DNA of 64,000 bases from Thermodesulfovibrionia bacterium (GCA_041500225.1 JBGQLV010000006.1:8271-72270), one strand, 5' to 3'. Shown: positions 38,397 through 53,769, counted from the first letter of the stretch. The notes: generated by a model not told the origin, from the sequence alone. Translations and numbers: made by a program.

Positions 38397-38735
38397 TCAC
38401 TTGTTAAGTTGACTAAATTGGCAACGTCCCCTATTTATCAACGCAACGCTTACTTCTAACTTTAGGACATGAGATGGCGGTAATCTATGTAGAAGAGAAG
38501 GGCGTTCGGTGTTCGGTATTTTTTTGCCTCTCTTCCCGTTGAGTTTGTCAAACTTGACCCTGTGTTCAAGTGGAGGATATATAAAGCCATCTTTGTTTTT
38601 ATATTTAGTGATCCACTTGCATGCGTTATCAAAATTAGCCGCAGGCATGACCTGACCACCATCAAATTTGATTTGTGACGCATAATCTAAGAACCCAAAT
38701 AAGTCCGATATAATCATTTTATCAACGACCAACAT
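38397..38735 (-). CDS. cassette-borne hypothetical protein
   Basis: The ORF is followed directly by an attC. I placed the start at the ATG encoding MLVVDKM; codons upstream in the track ORF run through repeat sequence. No motif recognised. Confidence 0.4.
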   Translation of the reverse strand: MLVVDKMIISDLFGFLDYASQIKFDGGQVMPAANFDNACKWITKYKNKDGFIYPPLEHRVKFDKLNGKRGKKIPNTERPSLLHRLPPSHVLKLEVSVALINRGRCQFSQLNK

Positions 38736-38817
38736 CAGCCGACCCCGCCACAGACGCCGGACTGAAAAGGAAAAGCGGCTATTCGAGGTCGGCCGGATGA
38801 ATTTGTTATCCCAAATG

Positions 38818-38906
38818 AGAACTCGTGAAGGGGTCAAATCTTTGATATTGACAAATATGTCACAGATAAAGATTTGACCCCATTCCCTGTTTTCTTCTCG
38901 AGTTCT
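38818..38906. repeat. gene-less hairpin copy (REPIN-like) of the RAYT-flanking inverted repeats
   Basis: GGGGTCAAATCTTT (38830-38843) and AAAGATTTGACCCC (38868-38881), with a 24-nt loop. Outer stem AGAACTCG (38818-38825) / CGAGTTCT (38899-38906). Confidence 0.85.
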
Positions 38907-39244
38907 GCCCCTTACCCGATCCTGGAGCTAACTGGATGACGCATTATGTGTGAGCCATATCTTTGATGAGGACGGTATAAGGGTTCTGAATTGTTTCTAT
39001 GCCGTGGAGAACAAGACCGAATGGTCTCTCCACTGTCGTCGGTAGCACGGAAGATACGCAACGTTCCGTGCTGCAAGGCTATTGAGCATCGATAAGTGTT
39101 TGGTGCAGACTTTTGTTCTGATACCGTGGTGGAAACCAAGTCGGAGCTATTGGACAATCTTTAAAAAAATAAGGAAATGGAATTTTCTATTTTTATTTCC
39201 GATCAGGTTCGCTTTTTCTCTTGACAGTGCGGGGCCTTATAAGT

Positions 39245-39251
39245 GTTGGAC
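39245..39251 (-). other. R'' box of the attC belonging to the 39276-40415 cassette
   Basis: Plus-strand GTTGGAC lies 24 nt past the stop. It is the exact complement of the cassette's first bases (GTCCAAC at 40505-40511). The rest of this attC is not resolved. Confidence 0.5.
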
Positions 39252-39275
39252 GCCTTCTCAATGCTTTTATTGATG

Positions 39276-40415
39276 CTATCTGCTCATGGTCATACATTCA
39301 TTTTTTTGTAAACACTGTGAGCACAACCCCTTGTCGCGATATTCATAAAACTTACCCAAACAACTACTGGCTGTTTTACATGAATCATTACGCGTACAGA
39401 GCGAACACTCATTCCCACTTTCAACGTATTCATAAAACTTACCAAAACAGCCTTTTAGGCTATAATCCTTTTGGGGCCTGATTTTCTCAAGTGCCCTCGT
39501 AGCCTCTTCTCTTATTGAAGAATCATCATCCCTTAAGGCAAAAATCAGAGGTTCAACTGCGCGTGGGTTTTTTATCTCCCCAAGTGCCTTTACCGTTTTC
39601 TGGCGGACAATCTGCCTTTCATCCTTTAGAGCCTCTATCAATAAGTCCAATGCACTGGAATCTCTTATCCCTTGCTGAACCATTGCATTTAGAATAGCTT
39701 GGCAAACTGCCTCACTGTGTTCACTTGTTGCATGCTTCACCTGTCGTTTCCAATTATCAACAATAAAAAAATCAGGTTTTTCTGATGTATACTTATACAT
39801 ATCTGAAAAGGATAGTGTTTCATACTCTAATACATCAAGTAACGGTTTTATAATTTTAAAGTCACCTATTTTATTTAATGAGTTAATAATAGTTATTTCC
39901 ATGTTTTTGGTGTCATTCAGTTGGTCTTTAACCGAAAGTGCAGCTGTCATGCCCTCATTAGTATTTCCTCGTAGGAACAGAAGTTCTACTACAGTCCATA
40001 AGCTTTGCCACATCCCAAAACGAAGCTTACCATTCCAAATAGAGAGTGCTTGAAGTAACGCCCATACATGATCATTCTTTATTTCCCCTAAAAATTCAAC
40101 TGCTTTAAATACAAATTGCTTTTCGCTCAGAAGTGCGATTAACGACTCACTAAATCGAGGCTGTTTGATTTTGCTTAATGCTTCCGAAGCTTTTCTTTTC
40201 ACTGATTCAGATTCACTCAGTTCATTATTCATCAGGAACTTGATTGCCTCTGATGCCACTTTTGAATCGCCGATGTCGCACAATGCCAATGCTGCTTCTA
40301 TTTGAATATCTAAGTTTACTTTAGAGCTTAAGACTTGCATTAGTCTTTGAATGTTTCCTGTTTGCTTTAACTTGGCTATATTAGGTGGGCCAAAAAATTT
40401 TTCGATGATTCCCAT
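39276..40415 (-). CDS. HEAT-repeat protein with duplicated Cys-rich C-terminal motif (integron cassette)
   Basis: Own RBS (GGAGG). The N-terminus MGIIEKFFGPPNIAKL parallels the neighbouring cassette protein. HEAT/PBS-lyase-like repeats (VRQKTVKALGEIKNPRAVEPLIFALRDDD). The tail carries C.GKFYEY...G..CS.C.....C twice. Confidence 0.7.
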   Translation of the reverse strand: MGIIEKFFGPPNIAKLKQTGNIQRLMQVLSSKVNLDIQIEAALALCDIGDSKVASEAIKFLMNNELSESESVKRKASEALSKIKQPRFSESLIALLSEKQFVFKAVEFLGEIKNDHVWALLQALSIWNGKLRFGMWQSLWTVVELLFLRGNTNEGMTAALSVKDQLNDTKNMEITIINSLNKIGDFKIIKPLLDVLEYETLSFSDMYKYTSEKPDFFIVDNWKRQVKHATSEHSEAVCQAILNAMVQQGIRDSSALDLLIEALKDERQIVRQKTVKALGEIKNPRAVEPLIFALRDDDSSIREEATRALEKIRPQKDYSLKGCFGKFYEYVESGNECSLCTRNDSCKTASSCLGKFYEYRDKGLCSQCLQKNECMTMSR

Positions 40416-40504
40416 AGGTTGCCTCCTTTCATGTGTATACCCGCAATGACGAATAAGGTTATAGACAACAATGCCGTCTTTTTCATAATTATCATTTTAT
40501 CTTC

Positions 40505-40569
40505 GTCCAACAATGAGTTAAGGGACGCGGCGGCTTTTTACCGCGTCCCTTTTGAACGACTGGTTGTAC
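40505..40569 (-). other. attC site of the 40637-41518 cassette
   Basis: Plus strand: GTCCAAC-AATGA-GTTAAGGGACGCGG-CGGCTTTTTAC-CCGCGTCCCTT(TTG)AAC-GACTG-GTTGTAC. There is a 3-nt bulge on one arm. It starts 67 nt after the stop codon. Confidence 0.8.
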
Positions 40570-40636
40570 GCTTTCATTTGTTCTTTAATCTTCCTCATTA
40601 AACGGTCGCTGTTGTCCCTATTTTCCTTCCCTATAG

Positions 40637-41518
40637 TTATCCCTGCCAATTTCCTATGCCATCCCAGATAAATTCCAGATTTCGAGAGGCACCCCGGATA
40701 GCGCATCGGCTGGTAAACTCTGCATGAGCCGCCCGCATTAAGTCCATCCCCCCTTTTTGGTTTAGTATTTTACCAATGAGACGAAGTTCTTGCTCTGGCG
40801 CTCCGCCTTGTCCTTGAACAAATCCTTGTGGATGCTCCCGATAAATGGTTACCATTTTTTCAATGGCGTCATCAAATTCGTACTCCTGCGGAACTGTTTG
40901 CACAGTTCGGTGTTCTTTAAGTGCACGCTCGACCTCCGGCCCTCCGATGCACTTCAGGGCACCTGCAACATCTATCGATATGTCATTGTCCGAGAGAGCG
41001 TTGATTAGCGATTCTATTGAACTTGCAGCACCGATTTTTCCCAGCGCATTTGCTGACATTCTTCGCACATTTATGTCTTCGTCCTTTAGCGCTGAGATTA
41101 GGGGTTCAACAGCGGGTGTCCCGAATTTTGCAAGTGCTTCTGTAACCACGTCACGCACATGCCCGTTAGAATCTTGCAGCGCTAAGATGAGCGGCTCAAC
41201 AGCGGGTGTCCCGAGTTTTGCAAGTGCTTCTGCAGCCGCTTCACGCACCAATAACAGTGCTGAGATGAGCAGCTTAGCAGCGTGTGGCCCGATTTTTGCG
41301 CGTGCTTCTGCTGCGTCATACCCCAATAAGGCTGCGTCCTTCATTGCTGAGATGAGCGGTTTAACGGCCCTCACATCTCCAACTTTACCAAGTGCTTGTG
41401 CTGCCTTTGCGCGCACATTTGCTTCTTTGTGCCGTAAGGCTTTAATTAAACCCTCAACATCTTTCTTGGCAAGCATCTTTTCCACATTCGGTGGGCCAAA
41501 CAAATCAAAGATTCCCAT
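40637..41518 (-). CDS. HEAT-repeat protein (integron cassette)
   Basis: Own RBS (GGAG). Starts MGIFDLFGPPNVEKM. Has repeated ..VR..AA.ALGK.G...AV.PLI.AL.D units and a C-terminal ~90 aa of unknown type. Confidence 0.75.
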   Translation of the reverse strand: MGIFDLFGPPNVEKMLAKKDVEGLIKALRHKEANVRAKAAQALGKVGDVRAVKPLISAMKDAALLGYDAAEARAKIGPHAAKLLISALLLVREAAAEALAKLGTPAVEPLILALQDSNGHVRDVVTEALAKFGTPAVEPLISALKDEDINVRRMSANALGKIGAASSIESLINALSDNDISIDVAGALKCIGGPEVERALKEHRTVQTVPQEYEFDDAIEKMVTIYREHPQGFVQGQGGAPEQELRLIGKILNQKGGMDLMRAAHAEFTSRCAIRGASRNLEFIWDGIGNWQG

Positions 41519-41654
41519 CTTATTTCTCCTTTATCTACGAGCCGCGCGCCGAGCAAAAGGGGAGCGGTTGCTGTTCGATTCTTATATTTTTACCGCACAA
41601 AGCACTTGCAGCGGTCATAACATAAGAGTTTCGCCTTCTCTGTTTATTTTGTTC

Positions 41655-41719
41655 GTACAACGCCGCTGCTCAGGGGTGGCGCGGTTTTTACGCCATCCCT
41701 TGGAGCAGACAGGTTAGAT
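41655..41719 (-). other. attC site of the 41885-42457 cassette
   Basis: Plus strand: GTACAAC-GCCGC-TGCTCAGGGGTGGCG-CGGTTTTTA-CGCCATCCCTTGGAGCA-GACAG-GTTAGAT. The stem is imperfect, with bulged bases on one arm. Confidence 0.75.
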
Positions 41720-41884
41720 CTTTCAGGTGATTCACCAGAACCATTTCTACTTGATCCACAAGCGACGTATATAATATAACCGCAACCTACCCCTTAATGC
41801 CGTTCAGAGATTCTTCAGCAAACGGCGAACTGTGTATTAACTGATAACCACCACGAAAGGTGCCTACAAAAATTTGTGTTATAC

Positions 41885-42457
41885 TTATTTATTGCTGGCT
41901 TCAGGCACGAGTACGGTCGCATCGCCAAATGTTAGTTTGCACATCCCCGACTTCTGGAGACTGTGTAAGGTTTCAGTATCAATACTAAAGGCTAAGCAAA
42001 GTGAACAGCGGTTCTTTAGAAGCGTCAGGGTTTGGGGCATACCTTCATTCCGCTCAAGCCGATAGCCGTCGCCGGTGGTTGCCTGCTCTGTGGCAGTACC
42101 TTTGAAACCTAGTGTCGAAGTGTAAACGCATGTACCCTTAGGTCCAGAAACGCCCACCCCAAGAAGCATGCCATCTCCCACCGCTCCGGTAACAGCGATC
42201 TGTTTTGTTACCAACGTGAGTGACTTCTCATCAGGGCTGGAGAAGAGAGCTCTAATCTCTAGATATGGGAAGTCAGTGCTCATGGCTCGGCTTTTCGTGC
42301 CGTCCGTACACTCGATCTCTTGGCTGAGGTTTGCGGAGAGTTGGGTCACCGACCACTTGCCAGGTTCTTGTGCGGCACAAACAGTAGACACAAGAATAAC
42401 AAGGGTCAGGACGAGCCCAGACATTCTAAAAAAATAGTGACTATTTGTTCTTATCAT
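41885..42457 (-). CDS. secreted hypothetical protein (first integron cassette)
   Basis: ATG 42457 is preceded by AGGAG. Signal-peptide-like MIRTNSHYFFRMSGLVLTLVILVSTVCAAQE. The 40 extra codons in the ORF track read through a palindromic block. Confidence 0.55.
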   Translation of the reverse strand: MIRTNSHYFFRMSGLVLTLVILVSTVCAAQEPGKWSVTQLSANLSQEIECTDGTKSRAMSTDFPYLEIRALFSSPDEKSLTLVTKQIAVTGAVGDGMLLGVGVSGPKGTCVYTSTLGFKGTATEQATTGDGYRLERNEGMPQTLTLLKNRCSLCLAFSIDTETLHSLQKSGMCKLTFGDATVLVPEASNK

Positions 42458-42470
42458 GAGATTCTCCTTT

Positions 42471-42618
42471 CTATCTAATGCGCGAGTTGAGCAGTGGGCC
42501 GGAGGCCCATCTGTTTCGAACTCCTGGTTCTCCCCTCGCGGAGCGCATTCACCCTGTTCGCTGCTCAACTCGCGCATTCTCCCCGAGCGGAGCGAGGGGA
42601 GAACCAGTTATTAGATAG
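42471..42618. repeat. 148-bp block of interleaved inverted and direct repeats at the expected attI position
   Basis: CTATCTAAT/ATTAGATAG at the ends. GCGCGAGTTGAGCAG (42480-94) pairs with CTGCTCAACTCGCGC (42561-75). GGTTCTCCCCTCGC (42526-39) pairs with GCGAGGGGAGAACC (42592-605). Direct repeat TTCTCCCC..GCGGAGCG at 42528 and 42577. Confidence 0.85.
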
Positions 42619-42625
42619 TTACAGA

Positions 42626-42654
42626 ACTTTAGCAGAAAGTTTTAATCCAGTCAA
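42626..42654 (-). promoter_or_regulatory. candidate cassette promoter (Pc-like)
   Basis: Minus strand: TTGACT, 17 nt, TAAAGT, pointing into the cassette array. Based on sequence resemblance only. Confidence 0.25.
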
Positions 42655-42672
42655 TAGCAATTAAAAGCAATA

Positions 42673-42701
42673 TTGACATATCTGCTGGATATAATTATAC
42701 T
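42673..42701 (+). promoter_or_regulatory. candidate intI promoter
   Basis: TTGACA (42673-78), a 17-nt spacer, TATACT (42696-701), 50 nt upstream of the intI ATG and back to back with the Pc candidate. Confidence 0.4.
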
Positions 42702-42751
42702 TTTTAAAATGACTAATACGCTATTTATGATGTTAGTCATATTCAAATTCT

Positions 42752-44281
42752 ATGCAACCTATACCAAGTGATATTTTGACTCAATTCGAGGCCGTCCTGA
42801 AAAAAAGGGCAGTGCCTGTTTCCCGCCACGCGGATTATAGGAAGTGGCTCCGGTATTATCTTGATTTCCGAGGCAAATATACGCTTCCTGATTCCAAATC
42901 AGAACATATGCGTTTGTTCATCGAAAAATTGCAAAAAAAGAATCAGACGCCCGAACAGCAAAAGCAGGCAGCGCATGCACTGTCTCTTTATTTTGAGATA
43001 CTGAATGCAGAGACAAAGGCTGCGACAATATCCACATCGTCTCAATACCGGGCAACCACGGAGGGATTGCCCCTACAGGTATCGGAGGCAGCAACAACCC
43101 CCGCCACCCCTCGTAGCGAGTCTTCGCGCAGAGTCGCTACGACCTTTACTAAGGGGGAATCTTCCAATGACTTATCGAGGGCTGAGGCGATAACGCCGAT
43201 ATATTCCCCTCTTTCGGATATGCAACAGCCGCAGCGCGTACCGGAAACAGAGCCTGCTATGCCAAAGAAATCGGCTGGCAGTCGTTATAATGAATGGCGT
43301 TGTCTGGAGAAATCCGGATCTCCAGCCTGGGACAAGATCATCGACAATCTGGCGGCAGAGATCAAGATACGGCACTATTCCCGAAAAACGCTCAAAGCTT
43401 ATGCGGATTGGAGCCGCAAATTCCAGAGCTACCTGCGAAACAAACCGCCTGATGAACTGTCGGCAACGGATGTTAAGGCTTATATCACGTATCTGGCTGT
43501 GAAATGCAAAGTGTCTGCATCAACGCAAAACCAGGCGTTCAACGCTTTGTTGTTTTTGTTCCGCCATATTCTGAAGAAAGATTTCGGCGATCACAAGGAC
43601 ATTCCCCGTGCGAAGAAATCGAAGTATATCCCCGTGGTTCTTTCACGAAAGGAAATAGACGCTGTCTTGAAACATCTGGGGCATCCCTACGATCTTGCGG
43701 TCAAACTGTTGTACGGCTGCGGGCTTCGTCTCTTCGAATGCGTGACATTGCGGGTAAAGAATTTCAATTTCGACGCCGGAATCCTTACGGTACATGGAAA
43801 GGGCAGTAAAGACCGGACCGTGCCAATTCCACAGACGATCATGCCGGAATTAACGGCACAGTTTGAGGCAATAAAAAAACTTCACGATGAGGATCTTGCG
43901 GCAGGCTACACGGGCGTGTTTCTTGAAGATCAACTCGAAAAGAAATATCCGAAAGCCGCGAAGGATTTCATCTGGCAATGGTTTTTCCCGCAGCAATCGT
44001 TAACTTTCGTGGAGGGAACCAAGGAACGGCAGCGGTATCATCTTCATGAAACACACGTTCAGCAAGCGCTATACGAGGCTGTCCGGCGGGCGAAGCTCAC
44101 GAAGCGGGTCACCTCCCACACCTTTCGCCACAGTTTCGCCACGCACCTCTTGCAGGCCAACTATGACATCCGCACAATTCAGACGCTGCTCGGCCACAGC
44201 GATGTAAGGACTACGATGATATATACCCACTGCATACCGAGCAGGACTGTAAAGGAAGCTAAAAGCCCTCTTGATTTTTAA
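42752..44281 (+). CDS. intI: integron integrase with extended N-terminus
   Basis: C-terminal HTFRHSFATHLLQANYDIRTIQTLLGHSDVRTTMIYTH. IntI-specific insertion QLEKKYPKAAKDFIWQWFFPQQSLTFVEGTKERQRYHLHE. Core-binding domain IRHYSRKTLKAYADW ... STQNQAFNALLFLF. 509 aa, against the usual ~320-340. Confidence 0.9.
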   Translation: MQPIPSDILTQFEAVLKKRAVPVSRHADYRKWLRYYLDFRGKYTLPDSKSEHMRLFIEKLQKKNQTPEQQKQAAHALSLYFEILNAETKAATISTSSQYRATTEGLPLQVSEAATTPATPRSESSRRVATTFTKGESSNDLSRAEAITPIYSPLSDMQQPQRVPETEPAMPKKSAGSRYNEWRCLEKSGSPAWDKIIDNLAAEIKIRHYSRKTLKAYADWSRKFQSYLRNKPPDELSATDVKAYITYLAVKCKVSASTQNQAFNALLFLFRHILKKDFGDHKDIPRAKKSKYIPVVLSRKEIDAVLKHLGHPYDLAVKLLYGCGLRLFECVTLRVKNFNFDAGILTVHGKGSKDRTVPIPQTIMPELTAQFEAIKKLHDEDLAAGYTGVFLEDQLEKKYPKAAKDFIWQWFFPQQSLTFVEGTKERQRYHLHETHVQQALYEAVRRAKLTKRVTSHTFRHSFATHLLQANYDIRTIQTLLGHSDVRTTMIYTHCIPSRTVKEAKSPLDF

Positions 44282-44283
44282 AT

Positions 44284-44475
44284 AAATTGAGCGATTCTTT
44301 TAAGGTTGTCATTGCGAGGAGCGGAGCGATGTGGCAATCTCTATCACTTAAGACGAGATCCCTCACGGAGTTTATCCTGAGCAGTAAGATAAGATTCCTC
44401 ACTGCGTTCGGAATGACAGGCAAAGGGTTCGGAATGACAATTCTAAATGGTTTATACATAAAAATCGCTCAATTT
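44284..44475. repeat. composite palindromic element: 13-bp outer inverted repeats enclosing a divergent GTCATT...AATGAC double hairpin (copy D)
   Basis: AAATTGAGCGATT (44284-96) pairs with AATCGCTCAATTT (44463-75). Inside is GTCATTGCGAGG...GCAATC ... GATTCC...GGAATGAC (44308-44417), plus an extra GGAATGAC at 44431-38. Confidence 0.8.
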
Positions 44476-44618: not shown

Positions 44619-44780
44619 ATAGATAAGGGGATGTATATTTTGTTTTTACAGGTAACTACAATTTTAAAAAGACTATAGCATATTCCCTTTTTCAGACAAG
44701 CTACCGCCTTTATAGTACAGCAACTCCTTGCCCCGTCTGCAGTCGGGGCGTTTCATTTGGATAGACAGGTATGATTGCTC

Positions 44781-46052
44781 TTACTGATAAACCGTAGACG
44801 CTATTTTTACGGTCAGATCACCGAGCATGTTGGTATAACTTCCCAGTTCATTATCATACCAGCCATAGATTGAGGTCTGTGTAACTGGTATTTCTATGTT
44901 CGATGGAAGCTGTCCAGCTAATGACTCTGGAACTTTGTAAAGTTTCGAAAGGTCCAGTGTTACAAAGGCTGTCCTTGTGTGTGTCTCGTTGCCTTCAATA
45001 ATAGTAGCCGGCCCGAATTGTCCAATTATATCGGAAGATACATTCTGCTCATCCGTATATTTGATATAACCCCTCTTTTCCCTCTTTTCAGCATCACGAT
45101 AAATGTCGTTAATAAGGGTTCGATTAATTGCGGGGCTGCCTGGTTCGTCATATAATGCAACTACCAGGATGATTAGAGATCCTGTAGTGGTTGGGATACG
45201 CACTGATTCTGCAATAAACCCTATCTTGTTCATCTCCGGGATTACCAGGCCGAGTGTCTTAGCGGCTCCGGTAGTTGTCAAAATGATATTATTCATGATG
45301 CTTCTGTTTTTCCTTAAGTCAGTGGCACCGGCCTCTGGTAACCTGTCCAGTACTTCCTGGGTCCCTGTGGCAGCATGGATTGTGGCCATAGAAGCACTCA
45401 GTATCTTTTTTGAACCAAAGTAATCTAATAGCGGCTTGATCATATATGAAAGACAGGTCGTGGTACACGATGCAGCGGAAATAACACGATGTTTGGTCTG
45501 GTCGTATATATCGTCATTAATACCGATTACAATAGTTGTTGCATCATCCGGCATAGAAATACCTTTTGTTTTAATCTTAAAGGGTGCGGAAACAATAACC
45601 TTTTCTGCCCCTGCCTCTAAGTGGTCGCGGGCAGAACCCTCTTTAGAGTCAGGCGGGGCTGCAGGGTCTTTAAACTTACCAGTGCTTTCAACAACTATTT
45701 TTGCACCGTATTTATCCCAGGGTATAAGCCTTGGGCTGCGGGTTTCCCTTAAGATAGTTACTGGTAAGCCGTCTATCAGCATGGTACCCTTGTCTTCGTC
45801 AAGGTTTTCAATTATCCTTTTTGTCTTGTGTCCATAAAGATAACGCTGTAACATTCCATAAGTAGAATCCTTTTCAATATAAAGGGCAATATCCTCGAGC
45901 CTGGTTCCAACCTTTCTACCGATGTTTACAACAATCTCTGAAAAATATTTTCTACATATATGATGCCAGAGTGTCAGCTTGCCAATTCTGCCCAGACCGT
46001 TTATACCAAGTACGGGCTTTTTCCCAGAGATCATTTTTACTTTGTTTTTCAT
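44781..46052 (-). CDS. glyceraldehyde-3-phosphate dehydrogenase, long form
   Basis: NAD(P)-binding GINGLGRIGK, catalytic Cys in SAASCTTTCL, and C-terminal WYDNE. 423 aa, with insertions relative to the classic ~335-aa GapA. Confidence 0.85.
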   Translation of the reverse strand: MKNKVKMISGKKPVLGINGLGRIGKLTLWHHICRKYFSEIVVNIGRKVGTRLEDIALYIEKDSTYGMLQRYLYGHKTKRIIENLDEDKGTMLIDGLPVTILRETRSPRLIPWDKYGAKIVVESTGKFKDPAAPPDSKEGSARDHLEAGAEKVIVSAPFKIKTKGISMPDDATTIVIGINDDIYDQTKHRVISAASCTTTCLSYMIKPLLDYFGSKKILSASMATIHAATGTQEVLDRLPEAGATDLRKNRSIMNNIILTTTGAAKTLGLVIPEMNKIGFIAESVRIPTTTGSLIILVVALYDEPGSPAINRTLINDIYRDAEKREKRGYIKYTDEQNVSSDIIGQFGPATIIEGNETHTRTAFVTLDLSKLYKVPESLAGQLPSNIEIPVTQTSIYGWYDNELGSYTNMLGDLTVKIASTVYQ

Positions 46053-46098
46053 CTTTACTGTACCCCCTCCTGAGATTAATTTATAAGTTTTTTAAAGA

Positions 46099-49000
46099 TT
46101 ATACCAGCAGTTTGATTTCCTGTACCTGATGCCTGCCTGAATAAACCGAGCCGTTATGGCCGTCAATACTCAAAAAATCACCTGCCTTTAATATCCGGTT
46201 ATTAAGTTTACATCTCTTTTCATGTTCGCGCACATCTAAATTATTGCAACTTACCACACAGGTCTTTCCCAATCGGTTGGCAATAATAGCAGCATGAGAG
46301 GTTGATCCCCCGCGAGCAGTCAGCAAGCCGTCTGCTGCTGAGATATGTCTTATATCGTCTGGAACAGTATCCGACCTGATTAAAATAAGTGGTGTTTCCG
46401 GGTACTTTTCCCTGAACTCTTGAATTTCATCTAAATCAAAGACAATTCTACCACTAAGGGCACCACCGCCAACACCTATCCCGCTGGAAAGGTAATTGGA
46501 GGATAGTTTCTTAGAAGGGACAAAGGCCATAAAACTTTCTCTTTTTCTAATAGCCATATCACGTGCCTGAAGGATGTAAAGATTCGCAGTGTCTTTCCCT
46601 TCAAAGGTAAATTCAATCTCCTGAGCGCCCCATCTCTCTTTATAGATTAAATCCTTGATTATTTTTAGCAGTGCACTATAAATCTCAGGAAAACTGTCCT
46701 CCAGTGAAATGTCAGATGTTCTTTCTTCGATATGTCTTTGTTCATTAGAGATAGGCAGTGTCTTTACCAGCCCTGAGACTATATCCTCTCCTTGTGCTCC
46801 AAGTGTAAAGTCACCCCATAACATGACTTTATCTCCAGACTCCTGGGGGTTGCGGGTAAAAAGAACCCCTGTTCCTGAATTAGCATCTAAATTACCATAA
46901 ACCATTGCCTGCACAATAACTGCTGTACCCCAGTTTTCAGAAATACCCAATATCTCACGATAATCCCGGGCTTTTTGAGAAAACCAGGATTGAAATACCT
47001 GGGCGATTGCCATATCAAGCTGGATTTTTGGGTCATCAGTTATTTCTATCCCGTTATCCTTAACAGCATCCCGATAAGCAAATGCTACATCTCTCATCTG
47101 CTCAGGTGTAAATTGAATTTTTCTCGGAACCTTATATCTCTCCTTAAAAGAATTGATAATATCGTCGAATTTATTCCTTTCCATGCCAAAAAACATTCCC
47201 CAGCACTGTAAAAACCGTCGATAACAATCCCATACACACCAGGGCTTACCTGTTTGTTTTACTAATCCTGCAATAATAGCTTCGTTAATCCCCACATTTA
47301 AAAATGAATTCATCATGCCAGGCATAGAGATCCCTCCTCCGCTTCTGACTGATACGAGTAATGGATTCTCAGGATCACCGAATCTTTTACCTGTTAGTTT
47401 TTCGAGTCCTGTAATATGTTCATTAATCCTTTCATCCAGATGCTCCCTAACATAACAAAATCTACTGATTGCCTGCTTACAACGAAATACCTCGGTAGTT
47501 ATAATAAAACCCGGGGGAACAGGTATCCCTAAAGATGACATCCTCACAAGGTTGTATCCTTTATTCCCAAGATGAATCCTGTCGTCGGTGGTCTTATCAG
47601 GTGTATGGATACCGGATAATGCCTTTTTAGGGTCATAGCTCATTAATAAATCCAGATCTTGGACATCCAATCTCTCTGCCTGTTCGAATAAAGTTTTTAT
47701 GATATTGCTAATAAAATTATCTAATTGCTGGAGTCCAAAAGAGGTAGCCACAATCTCCCTTAAAAACCGTTCTGAAGTTGTATTTATAAAATCAAACTCG
47801 CTCTGTTCCCTGTGTTTTTCGAGATATTTAGGCAGTATATTTTCTGTCCCAACCTGAGGAATAATATTTTTGAGGTTATTCTTGTGGATGCCGCTATAAT
47901 AGGTATTCAATATATCCTGTACAGCCTCTGAGAAACCCCTGAATATGTCAATATACTGTGAGAAGGAAAATCTTCTTACCTCTAATGCCACGGATAAAAG
48001 TTCCAGTGTATTTTCAAGTCTGTTTGAGGATATCCCGTCCAACTGTAAGGCCTTGAAAAATAAATACGCAAACTTCTTAATCTGGAATAGGGTAGCCCGG
48101 GTAATAAATTTAAAATTAGATGAATTTATTAATTCTTCAAAAAGTATATTGGCCAGATTTTCCATCCGGAAGGTTAAGGCCAGGGCATCAAATTTTCTTT
48201 CCTGGTATCTCCCATACATTGAAGGTATGCCGGCAGCAATATGTCTTTTACGAAAGATATCCTCTACAGCCTCATAGCTTTCAGGAGACAAGATAATATC
48301 TTTTAAGAGTTGTAAATAACTCAGGATACCTTCGAGACGCTGATAGACATTGCCTTCCTCTAAATTATTGATTAGCGACTCTGTATTCGGAAGACCTAAA
48401 CTTTGTGCACGTCTTAACTGTTCCTTGATGTCTTGAGTATTCAGTCTATATTTCTTATTAAGCAACTGATAAAACTTAATAGCAAGAAATACCCGTCTAT
48501 TTTCTCTTTCAGAGAGATTTGGTATATCCTTTATAAGTGTACTGATGTCCTCATCTGTTAGACGTAAAAGATTACTTAAATTATGAATTTCCTTAACACT
48601 AAAAATAGAATTAAAAATAGTACTGATTTCATCAAAATATGGACCTGATGATTTGACTTGCTGATAAATGTCCTCAGGTAGAAATCTTTTTAGATGTGTC
48701 TTATCCTTTGTTCTCCAGAAACTTATAATCTCCTCGATAAAATCAACCACACGGGCAGAGCTTTCAACGTGGCTTTGTTTGCGTAAAAAATGTATAAGTG
48801 AGTCAGCCCTGCCTGTAACGTCGTCTATTTCAGCAGAGACATCTCGTAGTACCCCTTCAGAGCCAATCTCGCTGAAATACACAGGGAATAACTTAGCCAG
48901 TTGTTTAACCAGGTGATAGACTGGTTTGATATCACTGTTCAGGAGTTTGGTAATATCCTTTTGAAATAGATCCGTATCACTTATGTGTATCCCACCCAAA

Positions 49001-50253
49001 CTTAGATTAATAATTAAGGCAGAGATAAGGGATTTAGACCATTTCGGACTATTCTCGATTAACTCCAGCCATACACGGATATTTTTTAAATGGGCGCGAT
49101 TAGATTTAACCTGCCATTCATCAGTGGCACCTTGTATCTCAGGATACTGGAATCCAAGTGAAATAATTTTCTGTATATACCATTCAACAAGATTACTATC
49201 GCCCAGATTAAATATCTCATTACCGATGCTCTGGACACAATATAGAGCTGTTTCAGGATAACTGATCAGACTTTTTTTCAAAACACCAAAAGTCCCGGAA
49301 AGCATGACCTTTATTTGTTCAGGTTCCTCCATCTTAATAGCGGTCGAGAGCGCACGATTAATCTCTCTGAGAGTGCCTTCATGAATGCCGGAAAGGCCTT
49401 TAGTTTCCATAATTTTAAGGAGATATGCTACCTTTAAGTTGAGGTCCTTATGCACATCGCCAGTCTGGAATAACAGACCGGAAAGATCCTCGTAGAACCC
49501 AACCATTTGCAAATAACCGGGTAGTTTTAAGAGCTCTTCTAAAAGCAAGTATTGATCCGTAATTTTTTTAAGACTGCTCAAATGAAGAACTAATCCCTTC
49601 AAGTTAGCATGTGATATAGGATAAATTGATTCTTCTAACTCTTTGTATTTGTCTTCATTTAAGGCAAAATCTGCTTTGTGTTTTAACCAGGTTACAGGGT
49701 CTTCTTCCTCCAGCCAATATTCATAAGTTATTAAAAGAGATTTAGAGAGCAAGTCATTAACACCCTTGACATCAAAGCGGGTAGGCATTTTTGCAAGTAT
49801 GATCTGGCCCAGCTTTTTCAGTTGATGAGGATTAGTAATGAGAAAAAAGAATTGTTTTTCCTGTAGCTGATTAAGCCTGGCAATACAGTTCTGAAATACA
49901 GGTTCATATTTATAAAGGTCTTGATTACCGTCTATCAGGATTTTTTCAAGGTAAAAGACAAGGCTGTCAACGGCTGCCTGCTGTATATTTATATCAGGAG
50001 AGGTTATAGCATCTAAAAAAATATCTGCAATAATCTTAAGTACCTCTATCCCCTTTTCGTGATGATCGTGTAAATAAAAATTTTTAAGTGCATAGGCACG
50101 TAGTTCATTTACAATAAAACCCCAATTTTTAGGATGACGATTTAACTCTTGCAATAAGGGCTCGGTGGCGCTCAGGATGCCTGGGTAGTCTTTAACTACT
50201 TCTCGCAAGATATCGTATTTTGATTGAGTCGCTATCTCGTTAACTGGATTCAA
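46099..50253 (-). CDS. large protein: ~870-aa unknown N-terminal region + PPDK-type ATP-grasp + phospho-histidine swivel domain, no PEP/pyruvate domain
   Basis: GNKGYNLVRMSSLGIPVPPGF, LLVSVRSGGGISMPGMMNSFLNVG, GTAVIVQAMVYGN ... GAQGEDIVSG, and the catalytic His motif GGSTSHAAIIANRLG. The ORF ends ~45 aa after that motif. Confidence 0.8.
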   Translation of the reverse strand: MNPVNEIATQSKYDILREVVKDYPGILSATEPLLQELNRHPKNWGFIVNELRAYALKNFYLHDHHEKGIEVLKIIADIFLDAITSPDINIQQAAVDSLVFYLEKILIDGNQDLYKYEPVFQNCIARLNQLQEKQFFFLITNPHQLKKLGQIILAKMPTRFDVKGVNDLLSKSLLITYEYWLEEEDPVTWLKHKADFALNEDKYKELEESIYPISHANLKGLVLHLSSLKKITDQYLLLEELLKLPGYLQMVGFYEDLSGLLFQTGDVHKDLNLKVAYLLKIMETKGLSGIHEGTLREINRALSTAIKMEEPEQIKVMLSGTFGVLKKSLISYPETALYCVQSIGNEIFNLGDSNLVEWYIQKIISLGFQYPEIQGATDEWQVKSNRAHLKNIRVWLELIENSPKWSKSLISALIINLSLGGIHISDTDLFQKDITKLLNSDIKPVYHLVKQLAKLFPVYFSEIGSEGVLRDVSAEIDDVTGRADSLIHFLRKQSHVESSARVVDFIEEIISFWRTKDKTHLKRFLPEDIYQQVKSSGPYFDEISTIFNSIFSVKEIHNLSNLLRLTDEDISTLIKDIPNLSERENRRVFLAIKFYQLLNKKYRLNTQDIKEQLRRAQSLGLPNTESLINNLEEGNVYQRLEGILSYLQLLKDIILSPESYEAVEDIFRKRHIAAGIPSMYGRYQERKFDALALTFRMENLANILFEELINSSNFKFITRATLFQIKKFAYLFFKALQLDGISSNRLENTLELLSVALEVRRFSFSQYIDIFRGFSEAVQDILNTYYSGIHKNNLKNIIPQVGTENILPKYLEKHREQSEFDFINTTSERFLREIVATSFGLQQLDNFISNIIKTLFEQAERLDVQDLDLLMSYDPKKALSGIHTPDKTTDDRIHLGNKGYNLVRMSSLGIPVPPGFIITTEVFRCKQAISRFCYVREHLDERINEHITGLEKLTGKRFGDPENPLLVSVRSGGGISMPGMMNSFLNVGINEAIIAGLVKQTGKPWCVWDCYRRFLQCWGMFFGMERNKFDDIINSFKERYKVPRKIQFTPEQMRDVAFAYRDAVKDNGIEITDDPKIQLDMAIAQVFQSWFSQKARDYREILGISENWGTAVIVQAMVYGNLDANSGTGVLFTRNPQESGDKVMLWGDFTLGAQGEDIVSGLVKTLPISNEQRHIEERTSDISLEDSFPEIYSALLKIIKDLIYKERWGAQEIEFTFEGKDTANLYILQARDMAIRKRESFMAFVPSKKLSSNYLSSGIGVGGGALSGRIVFDLDEIQEFREKYPETPLILIRSDTVPDDIRHISAADGLLTARGGSTSHAAIIANRLGKTCVVSCNNLDVREHEKRCKLNNRILKAGDFLSIDGHNGSVYSGRHQVQEIKLLV

Positions 50254-52978: not shown

Positions 52979-53076
52979 ACAGGATACTATATTTTCGCTC
53001 ATTCTCGGTCGTAACGACCTCCGAGGTAAATTCTTCCGAAAAAAGAATTTAGATCCACTCAAATACTGTGTCCTGT
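52979..53076 (+). repeat. copy 2 of the 80-100 nt leader element (upstream of the sulfite-reductase-like gene)
   Basis: The core at 52989-53024 matches 23091-23126 at 34/36. Closing helix ACAGGATAC (52979-87) / GTGTCCTGT (53068-76), with one T-G pair. Internal hairpin AAATTCTT-CCGAAA-AAGAATTT. Confidence 0.7.
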
Positions 53077-53109
53077 ATTTTCTTAAAATATAAAAAAGGA
53101 GGAGAGATT

Positions 53110-53769
53110 ATGAGTAAAACTCCGAAAGGAGCTATTTTACAGAGAGACAAAGAAACATATGCGATTGTGCCGAGGATTCCGATGGGGGTCTTAACTCCCG
53201 GGATTCTTGAGAATCTGGCTAAGGTCGCACGTAAATATAAAGTCAGGATAATAAAGATAACCTCAGGTCAGCGTATTGCTCTTGTAGGAATTAAACCCGG
53301 GGATGTTGACAATGCGTGGAAAGACCTTACAATGGAAGTCGGGCCAGCAGAAGGACTATGCGTTCATTACGTGCAGGCATGTCCAGGTACTGAAACCTGC
53401 AAGTTCGGCCAAAGGGATTCACTCGGACTTGCAGCTAAGGTCGAAAAGTCATATGTAGGCAAGCAGGGATATATTCCGGCTAAGACGAAGATTGGCATAT
53501 CAGGCTGCAAACTGTGCTGTGCTGAAAGCTATTTGAGAGACATTGGTGCCATCGCTGCACCGGAAGGTTGGACTGTTGTAGTCGGTGGTAATTCCGGAGG
53601 CAGACCTCGTATTGGAGATGTTATAGCGGAAAAGCTCTCTGAAGAGCAAACAATTGAACTTATAAAGAAGTGTCTTGATTATTATTCAAAAAATGCAAAT
53701 CCCAGAGAAAGAATGCCGAGATTCATCCAGCGCATCGGCATAGAGGAATTCAAGAAAGCCGGACTTTAA
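53110..53769 (+). CDS. small nitrite/sulfite-reductase-like 4Fe-4S/siroheme domain protein
   Basis: ATG 53110 after AAGGAGGAG. Cluster motif CPGTETC ... CKLCC (CX5C...CX3C). About 220 aa. Confidence 0.7.
   Translation: MSKTPKGAILQRDKETYAIVPRIPMGVLTPGILENLAKVARKYKVRIIKITSGQRIALVGIKPGDVDNAWKDLTMEVGPAEGLCVHYVQACPGTETCKFGQRDSLGLAAKVEKSYVGKQGYIPAKTKIGISGCKLCCAESYLRDIGAIAAPEGWTVVVGGNSGGRPRIGDVIAEKLSEEQTIELIKKCLDYYSKNANPRERMPRFIQRIGIEEFKKAGL

Follow-up and report, generated by a model that had tools for sequence, protein, structure and literature searches.

Several described enzymes carry phosphate on a histidine of a mobile, or swivel, domain. In pyruvate phosphate dikinase (PPDK, EC 2.7.9.1), the phospho-histidine domain follows an ATP-grasp nucleotide-binding domain and is itself followed by a TIM barrel that binds phosphoenolpyruvate (PEP) and pyruvate. 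In rifampin phosphotransferase and the PigC/RedH-type enzymes (models NF041857, NF052631 and NF052632; ~860-880 aa), an ATP-grasp domain and a C-terminal swivel histidine serve a family-specific substrate domain that is inserted between the two. In Enzyme I and EI-Ntr of the phosphotransferase system (PTS), the mobile phospho-histidine domain is charged by PEP at a barrel, and in Enzyme I it delivers the phosphate to a protein. Here we analyzed a 64,000-nt stretch of DNA (hereafter, the window) from a Thermodesulfovibrionia bacterium (GCA_041500225.1, JBGQLV010000006.1:8271-72270), in which a gene for a 1384-aa protein combined the two PPDK domains with a long N-terminal region and was followed by a gene for a long-form paralogue of glyceraldehyde-3-phosphate dehydrogenase (GAPDH), which we named GapL. 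The 1384-aa protein is referred to below as the barrel-less dikinase. The main new result was that the two genes form a near-obligate partnership at the level of whole genomes.

All coordinates are positions within the window, and both genes were on its minus strand. The dikinase gene (46099..50253) had a TTG start codon with the sequence AAGAGG 9 nt upstream. The GapL gene (44781..46052; 423 aa, PF00044 and PF02800) came second in a head-to-tail arrangement, after an intergenic spacer of 46 nt (46053..46098). Recomputed open reading frames (ORFs) and translations reproduced the two protein lengths and the gap given in an earlier note on this DNA, which had been made from the sequence alone. 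The spacer contained a ribosome-binding site, GGAGGGGG, approximately 10 nt 5' of the GapL ATG, and a search of the spacer for a terminator-like hairpin found none. Co-transcription of the dikinase and GapL genes, as judged from this layout, is plausible.

The C-terminal half of the dikinase was related to PPDK. PF01326 (PPDK_N; residues 936-1238, 1.8e-34) and PF00391 (residues 1288-1368, 7.9e-18, 64 bits) were the sole Pfam matches of the protein, while the same search gave no match to PF02896, the PEP/pyruvate TIM barrel. The ATP-grasp domain was delimited by PF01326, TIGR01828 and the PDB entries 1kbl and 1dik at residues 887-1238 (46540..47595), and the swivel domain (PEP-utilizers mobile domain) by PF00391 at residues 1288-1368 (46150..46392). 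The codon of the phospho-carrier His1320, located in a GGSTSH motif, was computed to lie at 46294..46296. When the family profile was compared with the PDB, the PPDK structures 1kbl, 1dik and 5jvn were matched over the ATP-grasp and His domains only. Namely, residues 15-337 of 1kbl and 1dik aligned with the ATP-grasp domain, and 2fm4, an isolated PPDK His domain, aligned with the swivel domain. In all, the likeness covered PPDK residues ~15-510 and included all the catalytic motifs and the Thr-Ser-His triad. Conservation was assessed in an alignment of 64 diverse family members, with identity to the 1384-aa protein down to 24%. The ATP-grasp motifs SVRSG..SMPGMM, GAQGEDIVSG, QEIEFTFE and LQARD were conserved, and G1315, G1316, T1318, S1319 and H1320 were kept in at least 95% of the members.

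The relationship to PPDK was much closer than that to PEP synthase, and it was clearly partial. Only positions 13-335 of the PPDK model TIGR01828 were matched (residues 890-1232), and the score of 408 bits was less than half of the cut-off of 843. The PEP synthase models (TIGR01418 and NF005057) reached 86-100 bits against cut-offs of 598-740, with the match confined to the region of the His domain. The ORF ended 64 residues past His1320, not the approximately 45 that the earlier note had given. Since this was only 16 residues past the end of the swivel domain, there was no room for a barrel. Judging from these alignments, residues ~887-1384 are an intact PPDK-type ATP-grasp and phospho-histidine engine without the PEP/pyruvate barrel. 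Thus, two further points of the earlier note held: the PPDK-derived C-terminal module, with all four quoted motifs present in the translation, and the absence of the barrel.

The dikinase also differed from the other described systems. In PPDK the barrel comes after the His domain, whereas the dikinase had an 877-residue helical region before the ATP-grasp domain, as well as a dedicated GAPDH partner. The earlier note had drawn an analogy to rifampin phosphotransferase. This was sound as a comparison of logic, in which the two domains serve a family-specific substrate domain, but it did not extend to the domain order or to family membership. The extra region of the dikinase was N-terminal and unrelated to the inserted domain of rifampin phosphotransferase and the PigC/RedH-type enzymes, and the protein scored 38 bits against NF041857 (cut-off 999) and 32-38 bits against the three models together (cut-offs 999-1350). 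In comparison to Enzyme I, the dikinase possessed an ATP-grasp domain in place of charging by PEP at a barrel, and its score against the Enzyme I model TIGR01417 was 15.6 bits (cut-off 341.7).

The partner, GapL, was ~35% identical to GAPDHs of solved structure and fell below the cut-off of the type I GAPDH model (TIGR01534; 322 bits versus 367). It kept the catalytic Cys196 (in ASCTT; codon computed at 45465..45467, minus strand), His226, the DLRKNR and SVRIPT motifs, the TTGAAK loop and the arginines of both anion sites (Ps and Pi). Since the Cys, the His, the phosphate-site arginines and TTGAAK were all retained, GapL should be able to handle a phosphorylated acyl-phosphate/aldehyde pair. 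The equivalent of the NAD-specifying Asp32 was lost and N-x-G-R was found in its place; by this replacement, GapL probably prefers NADP(H). Relative to canonical GAPDH, there were four insertions, of which FKIKxK was conserved and near the active-site side, while the largest (359-393) was variable. The intact cysteine and several insertions reported earlier were therefore both present. Bacillus subtilis has a gluconeogenic NADP-dependent GAPDH, GapB, beside the glycolytic one. GapL resembled GapB in being a second GAPDH that kept the phosphorylating chemistry and lost Asp32. However, it was ~80-90 residues longer, carried the four insertions, fell below the type I cut-off and occurred almost solely alongside the barrel-less dikinase.

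The 1384-aa protein is assigned to a large and architecturally uniform family. Relatives numbered more than 2,700 in a word-based search, and an exhaustive search yielded 544 clusters at 50% identity, in which nearly all full-length members were 1350-1430 aa long and had the same architecture. The protein was 45-94% identical to family members over its full length, and it shared their length, the helical core with a KRH hairpin, the ATP-grasp and His domains, and the presence of GapL in the genome. Among the cultured carriers were Thermodesulfovibrio yellowstonii DSM 11347 (dikinase ACI20473.1, B5YLA1; GapL ACI22063.1, B5YLA2), Desulfopila inferna (WP_240194424.1) and Desulfolithobacter dissulfuricans (BCO10165.1). 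The annotation of all copies was generic, as in 'PEP/pyruvate-binding domain-containing protein', and no description of the dikinase family came up in a literature search, in which the T. yellowstonii pair was also looked up by its UniProt and RefSeq accessions.

The distribution of the two genes was determined in 301 Nitrospirota and 301 Desulfobacterota genomes, which were related to one another, so that the co-occurrence counts below are not independent events. Type A orthologues of the dikinase were found in 31 Nitrospirota genomes, there at full length, and in 81 Desulfobacterota genomes. In Nitrospirota, 31 genomes had both genes, none had the type A enzyme alone, and four had GapL alone. 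In Desulfobacterota, the corresponding numbers were 80, one and six. Thus, GapL was present in 111 of the 112 type A carriers, and just 10 genomes had GapL without the dikinase. The sole enzyme-only case was a 183-aa fragment. Among the GapL-only genomes, one Nitrospirota copy had an in-frame TGA (G068:C57:10890-12080), and of the six Desulfobacterota copies two were contig-end fragments and one had an in-frame TAA (G415:C1:180636-181679). The in-frame stops in these copies may reflect decay of GapL after the loss of its partner. In at least 10 Desulfobacterota genomes, GapL and the dikinase were encoded on separate contigs or at a distance of hundreds of kb, and there were at least two lineages in which the partnership outlasted a loss of linkage.

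Physical linkage was counted at the 82 type A loci with enough downstream flank, within 2 kb of the dikinase gene. GapL was found at 69 of these loci, a canonical GAPDH at 36, any GAPDH at 74, and both at 31. In the 69 loci GapL was immediately downstream of the dikinase, and in several of them the stop and start codons overlapped or abutted. The usual order was canonical gap, dikinase, GapL. The eight loci without an adjacent GAPDH were all from genomes with GapL elsewhere. Accordingly, the earlier note's pairing with GAPDH was kept in relatives, both by adjacency and by co-occurrence. When 831 neighboring ORFs from 92 loci were clustered, GAPDH occurred in 73 loci, phosphoglycerate kinase (PGK) in 20, triose-phosphate isomerase (TIM) in 17 and SecG in 14, and the dikinase-GapL pair was often part of a gap-pgk-tpiA-secG operon. 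The location of the dikinase gene inside such clusters strengthened the link to triose phosphates that had been suggested earlier. Mirror-tree distance correlations (0.83 for dikinase and GapL, 0.88 for dikinase and canonical GAPDH) did not discriminate between the two GAPDHs.

The N-terminal region (residues 1-877) had no matching family or structure in Pfam, NCBIfam or a PDB sequence profile. An AlphaFold model of residues 1-890, built with 49 homologues, was all-helical except for one beta-hairpin (pLDDT 82, pTM 0.74). The earlier description of this region as helical and without a recognized family was thereby borne out. Two parts could be distinguished. The arm (residues 1-340; 49234..50253, minus strand) was helical, variable and specific to the GapL-associated type A subfamily, with a mean column identity of 0.28-0.39. 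The core (residues 341-877; 47623..49233) was conserved and is the candidate acceptor or substrate domain; modeled alone, it reached a pLDDT of 83 and a pTM of 0.81. A Foldseek search of the core against the PDB gave nothing below E = 0.1, and the whole N-terminal model matched only generic alpha-solenoids (such as karyopherins, Blm10 and SF3B1) with TM scores of 0.12-0.17. The core is therefore a 540-residue conserved domain without a solved structural relative.

Within the core, about 30 mostly charged positions were near-invariant (at least 95% of the 64 members). These included W380, H388, D426, R470, D477, D484, R491, K492, H495, K601, E664, K669, R670, H671, S678, Y683, E685, Q766, R832 and D845, and they clustered in two places, residues 380-500 and a flexible hairpin (664-685). 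The hairpin region (residues 663-685, VEDIFRKRHIAAGIPSMYGRYQE; 48199..48267, minus strand) carried the most conserved motif, E-x4-K-R-H-x-A-xx-I-P-S-xx-G-x-Y-x-E. It consisted of strands 663-670 and 678-684, and its tip (671-676) was the least confident part of the model. This pattern of conservation suggested a site of catalysis or ligand binding and not a passive scaffold.

The hairpin motif was common to type A and to a second subfamily, type B, that was found in ~26 further Nitrospirota genomes, mostly of one family with genomes of 3-5 Mb (loci L040-L047, e.g. L042:7142-11530; genomes G095, G087 and G155 among others). Type B proteins were 1450-1500 aa long and could be aligned to the 1384-aa protein only from approximately residue 340 onward, with 28-31% identity. 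In two of the eight type B loci a canonical-type GAPDH and then a DEAD-box helicase were located just downstream.

Taken as a whole, a functional dikinase-type enzyme that works with GapL at the triose-phosphate level is strongly favored. A more specific mechanism can be proposed tentatively. His1320 would be pyrophosphorylated by ATP at the ATP-grasp site, as in PPDK, and inorganic phosphate (Pi) would probably take the outer phosphate off as pyrophosphate (PPi), leaving a phosphohistidine. The Pi-to-PPi step is proposed from the descent of the domain, which belongs to the PPDK lineage. Next, the swivel domain would bring the phosphate to the acceptor site, a role in which the conserved helical core would replace the barrel. 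The likeliest acceptor would be the carboxylate of 3-phosphoglycerate (3-PG), giving 1,3-bisphosphoglycerate (1,3-BPG). The reaction ATP + Pi + 3-PG <-> AMP + PPi + 1,3-BPG would constitute an alternative to PGK linked to AMP and PPi, and GapL would reduce 1,3-BPG to glyceraldehyde-3-phosphate or run in reverse, consuming or supplying the labile acyl phosphate. According to our own estimate from textbook hydrolysis energies, the forward reaction would be at ~+3 kJ/mol, compared with ~+19 kJ/mol for reversed PGK. Neither the arm nor GapL is found with type B proteins, and the arm of type A proteins is for this reason a candidate surface for the docking of GapL. Since PGK was present and often co-located, the enzyme would be a direction- or condition-specific alternative to PGK and not its replacement.

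The whole explanation, a 3-PG/1,3-BPG phosphotransferase linked to AMP and PPi and working with GapL, seemed to us possible but well short of probable, and the specific reaction, which was read from gene context, calls for at least as much reserve. That the pair constitutes a new central-carbon reaction, a '3-phosphoglycerate, phosphate dikinase' channeled to or from glyceraldehyde-3-phosphate by a private GAPDH that probably prefers NADP, is a rather doubtful suggestion. If it is true, energy-limited anaerobes would gain a strongly driven route around PGK in gluconeogenesis or, in the opposite direction, a means of direct ATP formation from AMP and PPi. The pathways concerned, lower glycolysis and gluconeogenesis, are commonly taken to be completely mapped, yet the enzyme was found in about one quarter of the sampled Desulfobacterota and one tenth of the sampled Nitrospirota. 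If the acceptor were identified, the outcome would be either a new energy-coupling step, linked to AMP and PPi, in the central metabolism of anaerobes such as sulfate reducers, sulfur disproportionators and their relatives, or a new way in which GAPDH is controlled or repaired at the expense of ATP. Thousands of database entries that bear the label "pyruvate phosphate dikinase" or "PEP synthase" would be corrected as well.

A number of observations weighed against this proposal. The acceptor was deduced from gene context alone. PGK was encoded in the genome, often in the same operon, so that a substitute was not needed for completeness of the pathway. If the product were ordinary 1,3-BPG, then a private GAPDH would make sense only with channeling or a choice of cofactor, which is an assumption. 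Type B genomes lacked GapL, and in one Desulfobacterota clade GapL was convergent to the dikinase gene rather than co-oriented. Additionally, the N-terminal region resembled generic alpha-solenoids, which usually bind proteins. A few members (P0154, P0156, P0147 and P0195) had ~150 extra N-terminal residues, and in P0154 this extension was a hemerythrin HHE cation-binding domain (PF01814, 47 bits). The extension suggests sensing of O2, NO or iron in some lineages, and the hemerythrin-fused members hint at regulation.

Some of these points would fit a protein-directed activity, in which the phospho-histidine arm phosphorylates GapL, GAPDH or another protein held by the solenoid, or modifies or reactivates it in some other ATP-dependent way. 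The dikinase would then regulate or repair the GAPDH step and would not be a metabolic enzyme. Protein-binding scaffolds of the alpha-solenoid kind were the only structures matched by the whole N-terminal model, hemerythrin domains are typical of O2, NO or redox sensors, and Enzyme I of the PTS demonstrates that a His domain of this type can phosphorylate a protein. Moreover, in one Desulfobacterota clade (L106 and L110-L114; genomes of 1.5-1.8 Mb) rpoN-hpf-ptsN-rapZ and a GNAT acetyltransferase gene immediately preceded the module, in the order rapZ, GNAT, canonical gap, dikinase, GapL. However, this neighborhood was limited to the one clade, the Foldseek matches were weak as described above, and the deeply conserved, clustered Arg, Lys, His, Asp and Glu residues resembled a small-molecule site. 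A search of the 100%-complete genome for an HPr-type carrier (PF00381) gave no match; a PTS-like relay to HPr was rejected for this reason and for the restriction of the rpoN-ptsN-rapZ context to a single clade. It was also not obvious why a regulator would need a private GAPDH paralogue that was nearly absent without it. We considered a protein-directed role unlikely.

Another explanation keeps a small-molecule acceptor but changes its identity. The dikinase might act on a sugar acid, a triose derivative or a different carboxylate, such as glycerate, 2-phosphoglycerate (to give 2,3-bisphosphoglycerate) or 4-phosphoerythronate, with GapL converting the resulting product instead of 1,3-BPG. Some GAPDH paralogues do have other substrates, for example, erythrose-4-phosphate dehydrogenase, and a difference in substrate would more readily account for a private paralogue. 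The low score of GapL against the type I model and its conserved insertions, such as FKIKxK, are in line with this. On the other hand, GapL had lost none of the residues by which both anion sites and the thioester chemistry of a phosphorylating GAPDH are defined, and the repeated setting among gap, pgk and tpiA pointed to C3 phosphates. A different small-molecule substrate was considered unlikely.

A bacterial analogue of the plant glucan, water dikinase (GWD), phosphorylating glycogen or another polymer, was very hard to reconcile with the data. Genes for glycogen synthase or glycogen phosphorylase were near a few loci, but they were absent from the recurrent neighbors, the protein had no carbohydrate-binding module and no Pfam match in its N-terminal region, its domain order was unlike that of GWD, and GapL would be left unexplained. 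Finally, a split or decayed PPDK, with the barrel encoded separately or the protein a functionless remnant, would agree with the clearly PPDK-derived C-terminal 500 residues. It can practically be dismissed, since the genome encoded an intact PPDK, and thousands of full-length homologues had conserved catalytic residues and a conserved core. No separate barrel ORF was found beside the gene in 92 related loci, where the single match was an ordinary full-length PEP synthase. Neither a split PPDK, nor a characterized N-terminal family, nor a loss of the GAPDH pairing was found, the three outcomes that the earlier note had named as speaking against its interpretation.

The rest of the genome (2.7 Mb, 100% complete) encoded a separate 910-aa PPDK, an 802-aa PEP synthase, and a canonical GAPDH beside a canonical PGK, as well as a second, divergent PGK. 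The dikinase was therefore not a split PPDK, and it was not redundant with these separately encoded enzymes. In addition, contig C2 (97833-101654) carried a tandem pair of PEP-synthase-like paralogues, 853 and 865 aa long, with strong PPDK_N matches (~311 bits). The pair had the size of rifampin-phosphotransferase or PPS-like proteins, and the true PEP synthase was encoded separately, on contig C9. The divergent PGK (435 aa; contig C19:11801-13105, L054:1444-2751, minus strand) scored 264 bits against PF00162, compared with 531 for the canonical PGK beside gap, and it was kept at 70-85% identity in 59 of the 301 sampled Nitrospirota genomes. As a third partner of the dikinase and GapL it was rejected: it occurred in none of 11 genomes of the Thermodesulfovibrio-like family, and in 10 of 20 type B carriers against a background of 35 of 64.

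Several other features of the window were recorded. A G+C-rich hairpin (44729..44750, minus strand) was located 30 nt past the GapL stop codon, and there was no T-run after it on the minus strand; it is possible that it marks the end of the transcription unit. An Rfam scan of the locus returned nothing relevant. Directly downstream of GapL, several genes at 38400-44300 may form an inserted element. The G+C content of this stretch, 0.45-0.48, exceeded the ~0.40 found elsewhere in the window. A tyrosine recombinase of 509 aa was encoded on the plus strand at 42752-44281 (PF00589, and SAM-like domains at the N terminus), and HEAT-repeat proteins were encoded at 39276-40415 and at 40637-41518. The stretch also included a 230-aa ORF without assignment. 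On the other side of the dikinase gene, a 233-aa protein with nitrite/sulfite-reductase ferredoxin-like and 4Fe-4S domains was encoded at 53068-53769 (plus strand), between the genes for phosphatidylserine decarboxylase and a CDP-alcohol phosphatidyltransferase-like protein, inside an ilvC...leuA stretch.

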